A stretch of 58,342 nucleotides of DNA from a phage. The stretch lies in sequence record PZ445426.1; one strand, written 5' to 3'. This document shows, piece after piece, positions 1,572 to 57,787 of the stretch (position 1 is the first letter of the stretch; each line of letters begins with the position of its first letter). A program made the position numbers and the translations under genes. The notes below the pieces were generated by a model. It made no database searches, was not told where the DNA came from, and was given only the letters and a program-made list of their open reading frames with translations.

Positions 1572-3068
1572 ATGGGTATTGATGCAACTCACCCGCTATA
1601 TGACAAGTGGAAGGACGCATGGGTTAAGTGCAACGACTGCTATGAGGGTGAAGATAAAATTAAGGAAGAAGGTGTTAAATATCTACCACCTTTAGCTTCC
1701 ATGCTTATTGATGGGATGAATAATCCTAATGATCTGGGCTTTCAACGTTGGCTCGCTTATCGTCTGCGTGCTAACTTCCCTGACGATTATTCAAGTGCTG
1801 TTACAAACAATTTAGGTCTGCTGCACCAGAAGCCGCCTACAATCCAGCTTCCTCCTGAAATGGAGTACATGCGGGAGCTGTGTACTGCGGACGGTGAAGA
1901 CATTATTGCTCTGCTACGTCGCATCAACGAAATGCAGTTAAAAAATGGACGTTTGGGCCTGCTGCTGGACTTGCCAAAAGGTGAGGATGTAAATAACAGA
2001 CCGTATATTAGCGTTTATGATGCTTTATCCATTATCAACTGGGATGATGGTAAAGATGAACTAGGTAATATCAACTTGAACATGGTTGTACTGGATGAAA
2101 GCGGTCCTGTACGTGTTAATCAGTTTGACTGGAAAGAAGAGAAGCGTTATCGGGTTCTGCAATTAGGTCCGATGGACACAGATGAAGTTGCAGGTGGTGC
2201 GGTTTACTCCCAGCATCTATTTATCAACAATACCAATTATGATGAAGGGCAAATGATTGCTCCTTATTATAAAGGTAATACGCTGGACGAAATACCTTTC
2301 CAGTTTGTTAATACAACAGATATTACACCAGCACCGGAAGCGCCTCCATTGTTGGGGCTAGCTAACATCTGCTTAAGCATGTACCGAAGTGACGCTGATT
2401 ACCGTCAAAGTCTGCATATGCAGGGTCAGGACACGTTAGTTGTTGTTGGTGGCTCGGGTGAGAATGGAGATAAAGCCCCTCAGCGCATCGGTCCTGGAGC
2501 GGTCATTAACGTTGCTCTTGGGGGTGACGCTAAATATGTAGGCGTTAGCGGCGATGGTTTGTCCGAGCAACGCCTTGCATTGGCAGCGGATAAGCAGGAA
2601 GCTCAGATTAAAGCTGGGCAGATGGTAAACAACACCAAGAGCACGCAGGAATCAGGCGAAGCTATGAAAACGCGTATTGCTGCGCGTACCGCTAGCCTGA
2701 TTCGAATTGCGTATACTGGTGCGGCAGGTTTGGAAAACTTGCTGAAGGTCTGCGCTAAATGGATGGGTGCTGATCCAGAGAAAGTTGTGGTTAAGCCTAA
2801 TCTTGAATTTACCAAGAGCATGTTTAACGGTCAGGACTTTGTTCAAATTATTACTGCACGCAACCTTAAGGCTCCGATCAGCTTGCAGTCTATTCATGGC
2901 TGGCTTGTTGATCAGGGCTTAACCACACTAAGCTTTGAAGAAGAAATGGCAATTCTTGAAGAGGAGCTTAAGAAGTGGCCTCTGCCTGATGATGCTAAAG
3001 CTGATTTAAACGCAGAGCAGCAAGTAAACAAAGATCCTAAGGAAGACGACGCTTCCGATAAAGAATAG
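1572..3068 (+). CDS. putative portal protein
   Basis: 498-aa ORF directly after terL; GGAGGG RBS; call by size and position. Confidence 0.55.
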   Translation: MGIDATHPLYDKWKDAWVKCNDCYEGEDKIKEEGVKYLPPLASMLIDGMNNPNDLGFQRWLAYRLRANFPDDYSSAVTNNLGLLHQKPPTIQLPPEMEYMRELCTADGEDIIALLRRINEMQLKNGRLGLLLDLPKGEDVNNRPYISVYDALSIINWDDGKDELGNINLNMVVLDESGPVRVNQFDWKEEKRYRVLQLGPMDTDEVAGGAVYSQHLFINNTNYDEGQMIAPYYKGNTLDEIPFQFVNTTDITPAPEAPPLLGLANICLSMYRSDADYRQSLHMQGQDTLVVVGGSGENGDKAPQRIGPGAVINVALGGDAKYVGVSGDGLSEQRLALAADKQEAQIKAGQMVNNTKSTQESGEAMKTRIAARTASLIRIAYTGAAGLENLLKVCAKWMGADPEKVVVKPNLEFTKSMFNGQDFVQIITARNLKAPISLQSIHGWLVDQGLTTLSFEEEMAILEEELKKWPLPDDAKADLNAEQQVNKDPKEDDASDKE

Positions 3069-3098
3069 TTGCAACTTGCAAGTTGATCGGTTTATATT
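3069..3098 (+). promoter_or_regulatory. candidate sigma70-like promoter (TTGCAA-18-TATATT) overlapping a perfect 14-bp palindrome CAACTTGCAAGTTG (3072..3085)
   Basis: hexamers and palindrome read directly; lies between portal stop and next gene. Confidence 0.3.
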
Positions 3099-3163
3099 AA
3101 CGAACACGGGGCTGGGACGGCTCAGCTCCAAAAACGTCACACGGGTGACAACGGAGATAAGAA

Positions 3164-4036
3164 ATGAAAAAGAGTTCTGTAGCTATCAGTATTGGTCTTG
3201 CTCTAATTAATCCACGCGCTCGCGGTGAAGGTGATGTGGAATTGCAATACGAGTATGCATCTGCGGAAGAAATCCCGGCAGAATTTGCAACTCTTTACGC
3301 AGAGCAGGGCGGTAAATACGTTCTTGCAAAAGTCAAAGGTGTAGCACCTGCTGATAGCGTTCGTCGTCTGGAAAGTGCGTTAGCAAAAGAGCGTAACGAT
3401 CATCGTCAGGTGAAACAACAAATTAGCGCACTGGGACGTCCAGTTGAAGAAGTCCTGGCGGATTTGGATCGTATCCCTGAGCTGGAAGCTGCTGCTAACG
3501 GTAAAGGTAATCCGGAAGACATTGAGAAGATGGTCAAAGCCCGTCTTGCTCCGCTTGAGCGCCAATTGCAAACTGTTATCACCGAGCGTGACACGGTTAA
3601 GCAGGAAATTGAAGGCTACCGCACTCGCGAAACTAAAGCGAAGATTAAAGATGCAGTTATTGCCGCTGCATCCGGTGCTAAGCTGCGTCCGTCTGCTATT
3701 GAAGATGCGGTGACTTATGCACAGTTGCAAATGACAGTCGACGAGAACGGCAATGTGGTTACGAAAGATGGGGCTGGTGTAACTCCTTACCTGACTCCGG
3801 CGGATTGGCTGAACGAAATCCTTCCGAAACGTCCGCACTGGGTTGAAGGTTCTGCTGGTGGCGGTGCATCTGGTCCTGGCGCTGGCGGTCATCACGGTGA
3901 AGACCCGTACAGTCACGACGGTTGGAACATCTCTAAGCAGATGAATCTCTGGAAAACTAATCAATCTTTAGCTAAACGCTTAGCTGAAAAGAATGGCGTA
4001 GACCCGCTGAAGCCTGTACGTCCTGCTAAGAAATAA
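3164..4036 (+). CDS. putative scaffolding protein
   Basis: 290 aa; charged, coiled-coil-like middle and Gly-rich C-terminus; between portal and capsid genes; GGAG RBS. Confidence 0.4.
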   Translation: MKKSSVAISIGLALINPRARGEGDVELQYEYASAEEIPAEFATLYAEQGGKYVLAKVKGVAPADSVRRLESALAKERNDHRQVKQQISALGRPVEEVLADLDRIPELEAAANGKGNPEDIEKMVKARLAPLERQLQTVITERDTVKQEIEGYRTRETKAKIKDAVIAAASGAKLRPSAIEDAVTYAQLQMTVDENGNVVTKDGAGVTPYLTPADWLNEILPKRPHWVEGSAGGGASGPGAGGHHGEDPYSHDGWNISKQMNLWKTNQSLAKRLAEKNGVDPLKPVRPAKK

Positions 4037-4037
4037 G

Positions 4038-4083
4038 TTGACATCCCGACGTCCCTGATGTTAAGTTTCAACACATCAGGGAC
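4038..4083 (+). promoter_or_regulatory. TTGACA hexamer (4038..4043) followed by perfect 11-bp inverted repeat GTCCCTGATGT/ACATCAGGGAC (4051..4083) upstream of capsid gene
   Basis: read directly; no U-tract after the stem so not a classic terminator. Confidence 0.3.
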
Positions 4084-4158
4084 ACGGGTTCCTAAACAGC
4101 CTTCCACGGGGAAAGGCTACCAACAGTAAACAAATCAATCCTTTTCCTGGAGACAAGT

Positions 4159-5220
4159 ATGTCTAAATCTAAAATTATTCTACCATTTGGTCGTGGTGAA
4201 ACTGACCTGACTCGTTTGAAGGATGTCATTGTCCCTGAGATCTTCACTGGTTATGTGCAGACGCAGACTGCTGAACTTTCTGCTCTGATTCAATCCGGTG
4301 CGGTTGTAATGGACGAGCGTTTATCTGCTAACCTTGCTGGTGCAGGTCTGACTTTTAACGAGCCGTTCTATAACGACCTGAAAGATGAAGACGAAGATAT
4401 CGCGGTTGATAAAGGCAATCCGTCCAAACCGTCAAACATCACTACCGGATCTGAAGTTCAGGTTCGTATGAGCCGTTCGAAATCCTGGGGTTCTGCGGAT
4501 CTGGTATCAGCTTTGATTGGTAACGACCCAATGACCGCTATCGGTAACCGCGTGTCTGCGTGGTGGGTTCGCCGTCTGCAAGCTGCATACATCGCAACCT
4601 GGAAAGGCGTATTTGCTAATGCGAAGAAATCCCATAAGGATGATCTGACGTTCGATATTTCCGGTTCTTCATTTGTAAACAACCAGACCAACTTTACCGC
4701 GTCTAACTTCATCAACGCAACTGCAACGATGGGTGATGCTGCTCGTGGTCTGACCATGATTATGGTTCACTCTACCGTTCGTAACCGTATGCGTCAGCTA
4801 AACCTGATCGACTTCATTCCGGATGCTCGCGGCGAAACTCAGTTTGAGTATTATCAGGGTCTGCGTATTATTGAAGACGACTCCATGCCGCACGAACCGT
4901 CTACTGGTGTGTTTGAAAGCTGGCTGTTCGGCCCGGGCGCGACTGCAATGGGTGCTGGATCACCGAAAGTTCCGACCGCTGTGGTGCGTGACGAAGCCGC
5001 TAACCAAGGCGCTGGTGAAGAAGTTCTTCACAACCGTGTTGAATGGATTCTGCATCCGGTTGGCCATGCTTGGGCTGCTACTCAAACTGCTAAAGGTGGT
5101 CCGTCTAACGCTGCAACTACTAACAACCTGGCCCATGAAGATTCCTGGCGTCGTGCGTTCCCTGAGCGCAAGCAGCTTAAAGTTGCGCGCCTGATCACTC
5201 GTGAGTATCAGGGTTCCTAA
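4159..5220 (+). CDS. major capsid protein
   Basis: 353-aa ORF with GGAGA RBS after the scaffold-like gene and before an intrinsic terminator; call by position. Confidence 0.55.
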   Translation: MSKSKIILPFGRGETDLTRLKDVIVPEIFTGYVQTQTAELSALIQSGAVVMDERLSANLAGAGLTFNEPFYNDLKDEDEDIAVDKGNPSKPSNITTGSEVQVRMSRSKSWGSADLVSALIGNDPMTAIGNRVSAWWVRRLQAAYIATWKGVFANAKKSHKDDLTFDISGSSFVNNQTNFTASNFINATATMGDAARGLTMIMVHSTVRNRMRQLNLIDFIPDARGETQFEYYQGLRIIEDDSMPHEPSTGVFESWLFGPGATAMGAGSPKVPTAVVRDEAANQGAGEEVLHNRVEWILHPVGHAWAATQTAKGGPSNAATTNNLAHEDSWRRAFPERKQLKVARLITREYQGS

Positions 5221-5251: not shown

Positions 5252-5277
5252 GGGGACATTTATGTCCCCTCTTTTTT
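5252..5277 (+). terminator. rho-independent terminator (GGGGACA-ttta-TGTCCCC + T-tract)
   Basis: stem-loop and T-run read directly downstream of the capsid gene. Confidence 0.6.
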
Positions 5278-5289
5278 AGGAGAACAACC

Positions 5290-6422: not shown

Positions 6423-6929
6423 ATGGAGATTTCACTGATAGTTGAAGATGGTACTGGTGTACCGGATGCTAACAGTTATGTGACCATTGAACAAGTCCGC
6501 ATGTATGCCGCAATGCGAGGTATTGTACTTCCAAGTGAAGATGAAGATCTAAAGACAAAGATCTTCGACGCTATGGATTTTGTGGAAGGATACGGTCAAC
6601 GGTTTAAGGGTTACAAAATGGACCCACAGCAACCGCTAAATTGGCCACGCTACGGGGTGTTTGTGGATGGGTTCGAGCTACCCCAAAGCCCTTTACCAAA
6701 GGCGCTTATAAACGCGGTTTGCCAGCTTACAGCGGACTCAGCTACTGGCGGTCCCCTTAATGGGAAAACTACTGCATATGCAGTCAAAAGAACTAAAGTA
6801 GAAGGTCTTGAGATTGAATATGCAACTGGTAGCACAGCACAGTCAGGTCCAGCAAAAACATATGATAAAGCTATGACGTTTTTATCACCTTTGCTGGGTT
6901 ATCAAATGGGTAACAGATTAATACGGTGA
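6423..6929 (+). CDS. putative head-tail connector/adaptor protein
   Basis: 168-aa ORF; first of four short, translationally coupled genes between head and tail genes. Confidence 0.4.
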   Translation: MEISLIVEDGTGVPDANSYVTIEQVRMYAAMRGIVLPSEDEDLKTKIFDAMDFVEGYGQRFKGYKMDPQQPLNWPRYGVFVDGFELPQSPLPKALINAVCQLTADSATGGPLNGKTTAYAVKRTKVEGLEIEYATGSTAQSGPAKTYDKAMTFLSPLLGYQMGNRLIR

Positions 6930-39281: not shown

Positions 39282-40196
39282 TTAATCTAAAGCCTGATCA
39301 CTTTCATCGCGGAAATGCATAAAGTTTGCAAAACGCGGTTTATCTTTCACGCCATGAGGGAAGTGTTTATATGAAATAGTCCGACCTTTAATTTTGTCAG
39401 GGTTATTCCAATAATAAATCTTATCCTCTTGCGTTAGTTTACCAGGACTAACGTTGATTGTATTACCCGTCTTAACGTCTTTACAAACCAACGTCCCAAT
39501 CATACCGTTAGGAACTTTATTTTCCTGATGCGAAGATCGTGTAGTCCTGCCCAGCTCGTTAACAGTAGCTTCATTAAGGTTAGTTTCGCCCTCAATAATA
39601 TCAAGGACAATAGCGTCTTCCTGAATAAAGCGTTTAATACGAAGATATCCACCTTCACGAACTGTGCCGCGCCCATGTTTATAAGGCTTGTCAGGATCAC
39701 GGATAATAATACCTTCATAACCCATATCAAGCCAGATATTTTCCCAGTAGAGCAGCTCTTGTAAAGACTTAACCACATACATTGGCACAACTTGCAGGTC
39801 GAGCAATTCACCTTTCGCGTGCTGTGTGGTTATAAAATCTTTCATCATGTTGTAGCGGGCTTCATAGCCCAGCTCTGCAACACTCTCAGCGCACAGATCA
39901 AAGATGTGCCATTTCAGGAACGGTTCACCTTCAATTGTGTTTACCGCACTGGTTGTTTTACGACACAGGTCTGGATCTGTTTCCACCCCTGCCGCAAGCT
40001 CACCGTCATAGCCCATGTATTGAGAACCGCTGAAAATTGCGCTGGTATGGCGGTTTTTAAACAGCTTTAAGCTTCGCCCTACTATCTGCCCGTCCGGATT
40101 TAAACCGCGTACACCGTCGATTTTAGGCAGTATACAGCACGGAAACTTAATCTTTTCTTCAACCGCGTCAGTCGCTAAATGTGGTTTAAATGCCAT
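39282..40196 (-). CDS. ATP-dependent DNA ligase
   Basis: motif I KxDG (LPKIDGVRG); ATG 40196 with GAGG RBS. Confidence 0.7.
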   Translation of the reverse strand: MAFKPHLATDAVEEKIKFPCCILPKIDGVRGLNPDGQIVGRSLKLFKNRHTSAIFSGSQYMGYDGELAAGVETDPDLCRKTTSAVNTIEGEPFLKWHIFDLCAESVAELGYEARYNMMKDFITTQHAKGELLDLQVVPMYVVKSLQELLYWENIWLDMGYEGIIIRDPDKPYKHGRGTVREGGYLRIKRFIQEDAIVLDIIEGETNLNEATVNELGRTTRSSHQENKVPNGMIGTLVCKDVKTGNTINVSPGKLTQEDKIYYWNNPDKIKGRTISYKHFPHGVKDKPRFANFMHFRDESDQALD

Positions 40197-43249: not shown

Positions 43250-43727
43250 GATTTGCAAATTCCTTATGTAATTCCAATCTTTTAGCTCTAACCCAAGCTT
43301 TAGCAGCTTGTAAACCTTCAGGTGTAAATTCAAAATATTTTGATACCAGAACACCTCTTACATGTAAGTTTGCATAGTAAACTTGAATACCGTTATGTTT
43401 TGTAATGGTTACACACTTGACACCAGTTTTTGAGTCTTTACGAATAACCATATTATAATTGTTCTGTGAACGATCAGCCAGTCTAAGATTTTCTATTCTG
43501 TTATCGTCTCGAACTCCATTAATATGATCAATTATCATGCCTTCGGGGATATCACCATTGAAGTATTGCCATATTAATCTGTGAGCAAAATAAAATTTCT
43601 TATCAATCTTACCTTGGATATAACCATCCTGACGTCTTGTACCAAATGGTCTTTTATTATATCCGTTTTTATTTCTTTGAAATAATTTGCCATCTATATA
43701 AATAAAACGATCGTTTACATTGATCAT
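43215..43727 (-). CDS. HNH homing endonuclease
   Basis: ATG 43727 with AGGAGG RBS; HRLIWQYFNG...IDHINGVRDDNRIENLRL; preceded by a terminator. Confidence 0.65.
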   Translation of the reverse strand: MINVNDRFIYIDGKLFQRNKNGYNKRPFGTRRQDGYIQGKIDKKFYFAHRLIWQYFNGDIPEGMIIDHINGVRDDNRIENLRLADRSQNNYNMVIRKDSKTGVKCVTITKHNGIQVYYANLHVRGVLVSKYFEFTPEGLQAAKAWVRAKRLELHKEFANHGQHTSKRSES

Positions 43728-53809: not shown

Positions 53810-54202
53810 ATGCTATTAGTCGTCACCGGAGGTCGAGATTTTAAGCATGTGGAGTATATTTACTCTCAATTGGATAAGCTGCATATGCAAAGAAGGATAA
53901 CCACACTTCGCCACGGTGACGCTGACGGTGTTGACCGGATTTGCGCACATTGGGCAGAGCGCAACGGTATTAAGACAGAAGCGTTCCCTGCCCCGTGGGA
54001 CAATCTTTCCTTACCAAATACCAAGATACGGTATAACGCCAAAGGTGCTTATAATGCACAAGCTGGCTCTTACCGCAATCAATTAATGCTGGATACCGAT
54101 CCTAAACCAGATCACGCTATTGTGTTTCCTGGCGGAGCTGGTACTATGGATATGTACAGACGGATTAAAGCATCCGGTATTCCTTACACTTTAGCGGAGT
54201 AA
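53810..54202 (+). CDS. LOG/SLOG-like Rossmann-fold protein
   Basis: 130 aa; VVTGGRDF and FPGGAGT match the GGxG / PGGxGT signatures of LOG/DprA-type nucleotide-binding proteins. Confidence 0.4.
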   Translation: MLLVVTGGRDFKHVEYIYSQLDKLHMQRRITTLRHGDADGVDRICAHWAERNGIKTEAFPAPWDNLSLPNTKIRYNAKGAYNAQAGSYRNQLMLDTDPKPDHAIVFPGGAGTMDMYRRIKASGIPYTLAE

Positions 54203-57170: not shown

Positions 57171-57624
57171 CTTCTTCGGTTTTATAAAAACTAAACCGCG
57201 TCTGTTTATCGAGTATTTGATGATTGGCGCGGTTGTGTTTTTATGCGGGGTGGCCGCCTACTTGTGGTCACAGAACGAGCTCAGCAAAACTAATTTAAAT
57301 CATGCTGAGCAAAGACTAACCGTTGTAGAACAGGACAATGCAAAGCTGGGCGAAGCTGTTGTATTTCTTGCTTCCCAACGGGAGAAGGATACTGAATCTT
57401 ATCGAAAATTGGCTTCAGCAATTGAAAGTGAGCAACATAACCACAGGTTGCTTCAGGACAAATTAAAAGCACTGGAGAAAAGCAATGCCGACGTCAAAGC
57501 TTATCTTAATGAGCGTGTTCCTGATGATTTGCGCAGGCTGCTCGACGGAGATACAACCACCACCACCGCAGATAGTGAAGATAAAACTTCCAGCTCATCT
57601 GTTGGTAGAATGTCGGGAAGTTGA
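57151..57624 (+). CDS. i-spanin (Rz-like)
   Basis: N-terminal TM helix then coiled-coil periplasmic region; overlaps holin stop and o-spanin start. Confidence 0.6.
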   Translation: MKTILNNFFGFIKTKPRLFIEYLMIGAVVFLCGVAAYLWSQNELSKTNLNHAEQRLTVVEQDNAKLGEAVVFLASQREKDTESYRKLASAIESEQHNHRLLQDKLKALEKSNADVKAYLNERVPDDLRRLLDGDTTTTTADSEDKTSSSSVGRMSGS

Positions 57625-57787
57625 TAAATATCCTTTGGTTTATACGAGGGATATTATCCAACGTTTGCAGGATACAGAAACAGCTCTGACTGAATGTAAA
57701 CTGAGGGTTAAGGAAATCATACGCTATGAAGCTGAAAATGTTTCGCTTGATTTTGTAGGATCAAGCAATTATATTCAGCCTAAATAG
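57485..57787 (+). CDS. o-spanin (Rz1-like outer-membrane lipoprotein)
   Basis: signal peptide with lipobox-like ICAGC, Pro-rich QPPPPQ; begins in +1 frame inside the i-spanin gene and extends beyond it. Confidence 0.6.
   Translation: MPTSKLILMSVFLMICAGCSTEIQPPPPQIVKIKLPAHLLVECREVDKYPLVYTRDIIQRLQDTETALTECKLRVKEIIRYEAENVSLDFVGSSNYIQPK

Follow-up and report, generated by a model that had tools for sequence, protein, structure and literature searches.

Between the portal and scaffold genes of a Seuratvirus-type coliphage lies a perfect 14-bp palindrome that overlaps a promoter-like sequence, and the question raised by this locus is whether the palindrome, the promoter-like sequence, both or neither has a function there. 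The DNA analysed is a single stretch of 58,342 nucleotides (record PZ445426.1), referred to below as the window; over positions 2600-3700, the region compared, it shows 93-97% identity to 33 GenBank phage records, including Seurat, CAjan, SA80RD and WildeMaa. The original prediction, made from the sequence, took the palindrome to be the binding site of a dimeric regulator that controls an internal late promoter. Both of the sequence elements that it described were borne out: CAACTTGCAAGTTG at 3072-3085 is indeed a perfect 14-bp palindrome, and TTGCAA-18-TATATT is found at 3069-3098, with the palindrome overlapping the -35 hexamer and the whole site lying between the portal and scaffold genes. 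The role assigned to them is a separate matter.

Gene order around the portal-scaffold spacer

The following genes and signals frame the site.

1-1560: large terminase ORF (from the ORF list)
1572-3068, + strand: portal gene (from the ORF list; phrog_145 portal protein, E = 1e-118)
3153-3157, + strand: Shine-Dalgarno sequence GGAGA of the scaffold gene (from the sequence; unpaired in the predicted fold; annotated as an RBS in phage Seurat)
3164-4036, + strand: head scaffolding protein gene (from the ORF list; phrog_206, E = 4e-44)
4159-5220, + strand: major capsid protein gene (from the ORF list; phrog_247, major head protein, E = 4e-104)
5252-5279, + strand: canonical intrinsic terminator 3' of the capsid gene, GGGGACATTTATGTCCCC plus TCTTTTTT (from the terminator scan; annotated in SA80RD)

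The spacer between the portal and scaffold genes is 95 nt long, and the portal stop codon, TAG at 3066-3068, directly abuts the -35-like hexamer. In the annotated relatives SA80RD and KS_W4, the late genes form a single co-directional block that runs from the lysis genes through terminase and head to tail, with the early genes on the opposite strand. The strong terminator at 5252-5279 closes the scaffold-capsid unit.

A putative sigma-70 promoter for the scaffold gene

Sigma-70 promoters start transcription about 7-8 nt after the -10 hexamer, and with this rule the site can be laid out as follows.

3069-3074, + strand: -35-like hexamer TTGCAA (4 of 6 matches to TTGACA, including TTG)
3072-3085, no strand: perfect 14-bp palindrome CAACTTGCAAGTTG (from the sequence; judged incidental)
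3075-3092, + strand: promoter spacer of 18 nt, holding the variable positions 3078 (G/C), 3082 (G/A) and 3088 (C/T)
3093-3098, + strand: -10-like hexamer TATATT (5 of 6 matches to TATAAT, with A2 and T6 present)
3105-3106, + strand: predicted transcription start (from the position rule, 7-8 nt after the -10)

The two hexamers score 9 of 12 against the consensus, with an 18-bp spacer and no extended -10. The 8-kb region contains 13 sites of such quality, as compared with 11.0 +/- 3.5 in shuffled sequences, which is no excess over chance, while the narrower pattern TTGCAA-N16-19-TATAWT occurs once against an expectation of 0.17 and is found at least once in 15 of 100 shuffles. Perfect 14-bp palindromes number four in the window, against 4.3 +/- 2.2 expected from Markov-1 simulations, 64% of which contain at least four; the other three are TACACGATCGTGTA at 1130-1143, ACTGCATATGCAGT at 6771-6784 and TCAAAATATTTTGA at 43330-43343. 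Since the palindrome and the promoter match are thus each near the chance level when taken alone, their significance must come from position and conservation. A second TTGCAA, at 3076-3081, was considered as an alternative -35 and was rejected, as it has no -10-like hexamer 16-18 bp downstream.

Both hexamers are invariant in 18 close relatives. The site reads TTGCAA-18-TATATT in the E. coli group, TTGCAA-18-TATAGT in L115/L117 and again in STP-SP5, and TTGCAT-17-TATATT in yong3; the spacer length (18 bp in the window, L115 and STP-SP5, 17 bp in yong3) thus stays within the 16-18 bp of a sigma-70 promoter throughout. When counts are pooled over the three diverged lineages (L115/L117, STP-SP5 and yong3), 33 of 36 hexamer positions are conserved, as against 28 of 53 in the spacer (Fisher one-sided p = 6.7e-5). 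There is no coding constraint on the hexamers, because the portal stop codon precedes the -35, and the combination of retained hexamers and a drifting spacer fits a plain sigma-70 promoter whose spacer is free to vary, unlike an operator. The proposal of a regulated internal promoter therefore divides in two: the promoter half is supported, with hexamers and a 17-18 bp spacing kept in four diverged lineages, while the dimeric regulator site is not, the perfect dyad being a minority allele whose changes are not compensated. Judged on these patterns, the segment 3069-3098 is probably a host sigma-70 promoter of moderate strength for the scaffold gene, to which the palindrome is incidental.

Farther afield, the site is not clearly kept in the Nonagvirus JenP2 (at best TTGCTT-17-TAGTCT), and it is absent from the portal-scaffold spacer of K4PH164/EC151. 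A search of the literature on Seuratvirus found no mapped transcription start and no transcriptome, and the literature on Seuratvirus, CAjan, 9g, Vid5 and MMDA13 yielded no description of promoters, transcription starts or hairpins beyond software predictions.

The site shares many properties with the E. coli sigma-70 internal promoters that occur in phage structural-gene blocks: a TTG-type -35, a TAnnnT -10, 17-18 bp spacing, an intergenic position facing the downstream gene, and hexamers that are kept while the spacer drifts. As a predicted promoter, it differs from them in its score of only 9 of 12 and in having no extended -10. In the DNA of phage CAjan, dpreQ0 replaces G at GA and GGC (PMC7544227); neither motif is present in the hexamers of the scaffold promoter, and within the palindrome only G3085 stands in a GA context.

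A sigma-70 promoter placed directly after the portal stop would add scaffold transcripts on top of the long late transcript, and read-through from it would also feed the capsid gene. Extra transcripts for these two genes would be of use because the phage requires far more copies of both proteins than of portal. The transcript would begin near 3105/3106, with a leader that opens with two stable hairpins while leaving the Shine-Dalgarno sequence free. The promoter likely raises scaffold expression, and likely does so without regulation. One point seems to speak against this: an unregulated sigma-70 promoter ahead of late genes would also fire early, which would be wasteful. For the annotation of Seuratvirus genomes, one plausible internal promoter is gained, and little else changes.

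Promoter-like sites before other head genes

A second site of the same kind is found in the window, ahead of the capsid gene.

4038-4067, + strand: second internal promoter-like site, directly after the scaffold stop, TTGACA-18-(TGt)TAAGTT, with a perfect -35 hexamer and an extended -10-like element

At the equivalent position, before the capsid gene, JenP2 has TTGACA-17-(TGt)TAGTTT, Iggy TTGACA-18-TAAGCT, NP1 TTGCAA-17-TACATT and pVco-14 TTGCAA-17-TAACAT. In the clade L030-L035, a TTGACA that overlaps the portal stop is followed after 17 nt by TAACTT or TAACCT. Matching sites in several relatives, two of them with TTGCAA as the -35, suggest that sigma-70-type promoters before head genes are a habit of the family. 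In L030-L035 transcription is predicted to start within the 5' arm of a terminator-like hairpin, and promoter-initiated transcripts would consequently lack the terminator stem that is met by transcripts coming from upstream. The TTGACA of the capsid promoter in the window (4038-4043) contains GA, so the G of this -35 would be modified in virion DNA.

Possible expression of the scaffold gene from the late transcript alone

The most serious competitor of the promoter reading is that there is no functional promoter here at all, the scaffold gene being expressed only from the long late transcript begun upstream of the lysis and terminase genes. TTGCAA and TATATT would then have been kept for some other reason, for instance as portal 3' UTR or scaffold leader RNA, or by shared descent. 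Both parts of this account are possible, though we consider them unlikely. It draws on the weakness of the hexamer match, which does not rise above shuffles, but the contrast between hexamers and spacer (p = 6.7e-5), together with the retained 17-18 bp spacing, is what a promoter predicts, and the TTGCAA and TATATT blocks take part in no RNA structure. The flanking genes are all co-directional, so that a promoter is not strictly needed, and in K4PH164/EC151, Vid5, L040 and pVco-14 the spacers are too short to hold one while the scaffold is still expressed; yet equivalent sites with different sequences recur at both head-gene spacers in several clades.

Variation within the palindrome

The palindrome is built from two self-complementary TTGCAA hexamers 7 bp apart (TTGCAAC TTGCAAG). 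Its perfect form is present in 4 of the 18 aligned relatives, namely the window, PLYYY01, WildeMaa and Greed only; an exact-word search with 35 nt found the haplotype in 3 of 33 GenBank records (Greed, WildeMaa and PLYYY01), and the metagenome contig L119, a close relative, carries it also. Three of the four common polymorphisms of the 95-nt intergenic region fall between the hexamers, and two of these, 3078 and 3082, are inside the palindrome. Among the 18 close relatives, position 3078 is G in 4 and C in 14, position 3082 is G in 11 and A in 7, and position 3088 is C in 5 and T in 13. The minority strains differ by a C-to-G change at 3078, which turns TTCCAA into the second TTGCAA and completes the symmetry. 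(Only the haplotypes that have C at 3088, 5 of the 18 relatives, carry a GATC (Dam) site in the promoter spacer, at 3085-3088.)

Treated as a dyad in an alignment of 11 sequences, the palindrome is paired in 67.5% of cells, as against 99-100% in the hairpins next to it; six of its seven pairs depart by mismatches only, and none is changed on both sides. The self-complementary positions, 14 of 14 in the window, come to 10-12 of 14 in the majority, 10 of 14 in L115, 2 of 14 in STP-SP5 and 4 of 14 in yong3, the counterparts in L115/L117 and STP-SP5 being CAAGTTCTAAATTG and CAATCACAAATCTA, respectively. On the evidence of these alignments, the most plausible view of the palindrome is that of a by-product, a minority allele that arose incidentally and does no work of its own. 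Its place is the promoter spacer, where a promoter of this type is least constrained, and there is no sign of a protein that reads it. The lesson is a general one: a perfect 14-bp palindrome is to be expected by chance in a 58-kb genome, and it is conservation that settles the question.

The palindrome as a proposed operator

On the operator model, which spells out the original prediction, a dimeric protein from phage or host would sit on the palindrome and, by covering the -35 region, repress or time the internal late promoter. This is very unlikely, because the symmetry is a rare variant that is absent from most relatives. In favour of an operator, the window has a perfect dyad over the -35, the classic position of a repressor, and a palindrome located at a -35 element can be bound by a transcription factor (preprint 10.64898/2026.08.19.745784), but the perfect dyad is the minority allele. 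The arms CAACTT/AAGTTG do remain around a variable centre in 11 of the 18 close relatives; in 7 of the 18, however, the right arm is broken without compensation, and L115, STP-SP5 and yong3 lose the symmetry yet keep the promoter hexamers. A lack of conservation, together with the lack of a nearby transcription start, was named in the original prediction as something that would tell against it; the promoter hexamers are conserved, while the symmetry of the palindrome is lost in relatives.

The number of perfect palindromes, at the chance level, also speaks against an operator, as does the motif search that had been suggested as a check, which found no second copy in the 58 kb. Matches with at most two mismatches number 2 in the whole window, including the palindrome itself, and with a free 2-nt centre, again at up to two mismatches, there are 3 matches against 4.1 expected, which is no excess. 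The only near-match, at 39788, was rejected as a further operator, since it lies inside a 308-aa ORF; an operator shared with the capsid promoter was likewise rejected, the capsid spacer TCCCGACGTCCCTGATGT having no similarity to the palindrome and no motif in common with it.

As to a cognate protein, the authors who described 9g, of the sister genus, predicted two transcription regulators in it (PMC4276943), which favours an operator, and the genes reported for MMDA13 include those of a Q-like antiterminator and of a repressor of the TetR type (PMC7472734). Against this, the annotations of SA80RD and KS_W4 list no transcription regulator, and no DNA-binding Pfam domain was detected in 20 small ORFs around the early/late divergence region, the scan of which yielded only a YspA/SLOG domain and an Rz1-like LysC. 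A regulator may still sit among the many small ORFs that have no annotated function. The SLOG-domain protein, related to YspA/cpYpsA (PF10686), is encoded at 53810-54202 in the pre-lysis block, and the Rz1-like LysC (PF23793) at 57485-57787, embedded near the lysis genes. To our knowledge, none of the host consensus sites for CRP, FNR, LexA, PurR/LacI-type regulators, SlyA or CytR fits the palindrome convincingly.

In its operator-like length and its overlap with the -35, the palindrome resembles the repressor operators that lie over promoters, such as lambda OR/OL and the LexA boxes (for example the LexA site of yobI/ruvA, cited in preprint 10.64898/2026.08.19.745784). Real operators, though, keep their symmetry or their sequence across relatives and usually recur in the genome, and this palindrome does neither; also unlike lambda OR/OL or the LexA boxes, it has no evident cognate protein.

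The palindrome as a possible coupled terminator

In bacterial promoter-coupled terminators (Fletcher et al., bioRxiv 2026, 10.64898/2026.08.19.745784), the DNA of the terminator stem-loop can serve as the -35 element, the T-tract then lying in the spacer and a -10 following directly downstream; they average about -18.5 kcal/mol, and their palindromes can double as transcription-factor sites. That the palindrome at 3072-3085 is the stem-loop of a weak terminator of the portal transcript coupled to the scaffold promoter is most improbable, and we rejected it: the layout is formally the same, with a palindrome over the -35, the T-rich stretch GGTTTATATT and then a -10 between tandem related genes, but the RNA hairpin has a predicted energy of only -3.3 to 0 kcal/mol with z-scores around zero or above it, both in the window and in five further haplotypes, is weak with DNA folding parameters as well, has two G-C pairs in its stem and a T-run 5 nt away, was not reported by the terminator scan and cannot be formed by the commonest haplotype, so that, being far too weak and not conserved, it fails the terminator half of the comparison.

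Hairpins in the scaffold and capsid leaders

Downstream of both promoter-like sites, the window has a pair of hairpins.

3108-3129, + strand: hairpin 1, GGGGCTGGG-ACGG-CTCAGCTCC, 9-bp stem, followed by AAAAA
3136-3149, + strand: hairpin 2, GTCAC-ACGG-GTGAC, 3 nt upstream of the Shine-Dalgarno sequence
4078-4093, + strand: hairpin 3, AGGGAC-ACGG-GTTCCT, with one G.U pair
4098-4118, + strand: hairpin 4, AGCCTTCC-ACGG-GGAA(A)GGCT, with a bulged A at 4114 and the core TTCC/GGGA

Folded from the predicted start, the scaffold leader reaches -21.5 kcal/mol (z = -4.5) and leaves its Shine-Dalgarno sequence unpaired. Among Seuratvirus sequences, pairing in hairpin 1 holds in 99% of cells; two of its pairs have changed on both sides, and position 3127 toggles between G-C and G-U. 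In hairpin 2 all cells are paired (100%), and a single pair has changed on both sides. The orthologues of hairpin 2 in K4PH164/EC151 read GTTGC-ATGG-GCAAC, and the orthologue of hairpin 4 in K4PH164-type loci reads TTCC-ATG-GGGA. All four copies in the window have ACGG loops; within 217 nt, ACGG hairpins whose stems reach 5 bp or more number three, as compared with 0.004 expected (Poisson p ~9e-9, computed post hoc). Searched against Rfam 15 at E <= 10, the window spacer gave only three chance-level matches (E = 2-6; snoRNA and lncRNA families), and the loci of 26 relatives gave none at E <= 1.

A hairpin family before head genes

The hairpins of the window belong to a wider set. The survey covered 80 IMG/VR loci, each with a scaffold homologue of 35-99% identity. 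Across the Queuovirinae-like siphoviruses, hairpins that have A-Y-G(N) loops in common, on stems that vary freely, were found to precede the scaffold and capsid genes (loci L027-L103 and L120-L123); no description of such a family was found in the literature. Of 65 distinct sequences, 31 have an ATG(N)-loop hairpin, its stem 5 bp or longer, no farther than 60 nt ahead of the scaffold start, as compared with a mean of 0.6 and a maximum of 3 in shuffles and 0-2 in coding-region controls, and an ATG(N)-type hairpin is present in 43 of 58 scaffold-to-capsid spacers; about 1 would be expected in either set. When all 256 tetramers were ranked by how often each forms a loop closed by a stem of 5 bp or more in head-gene spacers, the top four were ATGG (28/147), ATGA (15/56), ATGT (10/53) and ACGG (6/36); the matching rates in coding sequence are 0.7-2.9%. 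On the minus strand, lower counts are seen for the complementary loops (16, 5 and 7), as they should be with G.U pairs counted, which argues that the structure is an RNA of the + strand.

ACGG loops occur in Seuratvirus, Vid5, L091 and JenP2, and ATG(N) loops in the K4PH164-type phages, NP1, Iggy, pVco-14 and most of the metagenomic relatives. The identity of the loop is uniform within a genome, no genome examined having both the ATG and the ACG type, and on a rough neighbor-joining tree of scaffold proteins, computed without support values, the loop state appears to have switched genome-wide at least two or three times. Loops that are uniform in each genome and switch together suggest a co-evolving reader that acts in trans, either a phage RNA-binding protein or an RNA. 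Such a reader would set the output of scaffold and capsid by antitermination, translational control or mRNA processing. It is quite conceivable, if tentative, that the portal-scaffold spacer is the Seuratvirus version of a previously undescribed head-gene leader cassette whose loops are read by such a co-evolving factor, and, with the same reserve, that this cassette consists of a promoter plus one or two A-Y-G(N)-loop hairpins before the scaffold and capsid genes alike. The palindrome plays no part in the proposed cassette.

Candidate roles for the hairpins include a boxB/nut-like antitermination site, a translational operator, and an mRNA 5' stabiliser or processing signal. For the translational operator, it is of note that in many relatives only 0-10 nt lie between the end of hairpin 2 and the Shine-Dalgarno sequence. 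The leaders of ompA and of T7 gene 10 have 5'-terminal stem-loops that stabilise the mRNA, and in a comparable way hairpins 1 and 3 set in 2-4 nt downstream of the starts predicted for the scaffold and capsid transcripts (3-4 nt in the case of hairpin 3); simple stabilisers of this sort, however, need no conserved loop, whereas in the head-gene hairpins the loop is the conserved part. Furthermore, some relatives hold the hairpin in a 22-nt spacer with no promoter, and the 5' end of a primary transcript is thus not a general requirement for it.

Lambda nut boxB and HK022 put are RNA hairpins near promoters that serve as antitermination sites. The head-gene hairpins are analogous to them in being short, in lying just 3' of promoters with two per site, in combining variable stems with a conserved loop, and in having terminators further downstream. 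They differ in that there is no sequence similarity, that no N-like protein has been identified and that some of them lie in promoterless spacers, and membership of that class is not claimed. No candidate for a cognate RNA-binding antiterminator was identified, a Q-like one being reported only for the distant MMDA13 (PMC7472734). If the hairpins are true regulatory RNA sites, they would provide an experimental way into how the output of the two most abundant head proteins is set, in a large group of siphoviruses of which several members are easily grown E. coli phages in the BASEL collection. As a lead worth following, the hairpin family may matter more than either the palindrome or the promoter.

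Terminator annotations and competing folds

Hairpin 1 (window 3108-3137) is annotated as a rho-independent terminator in SA80RD (3654-3683) and SA126VB (3651-3682). It does have a G+C-rich stem, but AAAAACG follows where a U-tract would be needed, and it was not reported as a + strand terminator by the scan; the feature so annotated in the two GenBank records is shown to lack a U-tract. T-runs are present, by contrast, at its orthologues in K4PH164, JenP2 and pVco-14. On the minus strand (3135-3150), hairpin 2 is followed by TTTTT and has a terminator-like score, and in that orientation it could stop antisense transcription into the portal gene.

At the capsid promoter, a 9-bp hairpin, CCCTGATGT...ACATCAGGG at 4053-4081, spans the -10. 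It overlaps hairpin 3 (4078-4093), so the two folds are mutually exclusive, and capsid transcripts that arise by read-through would fold differently from those initiated at the promoter.
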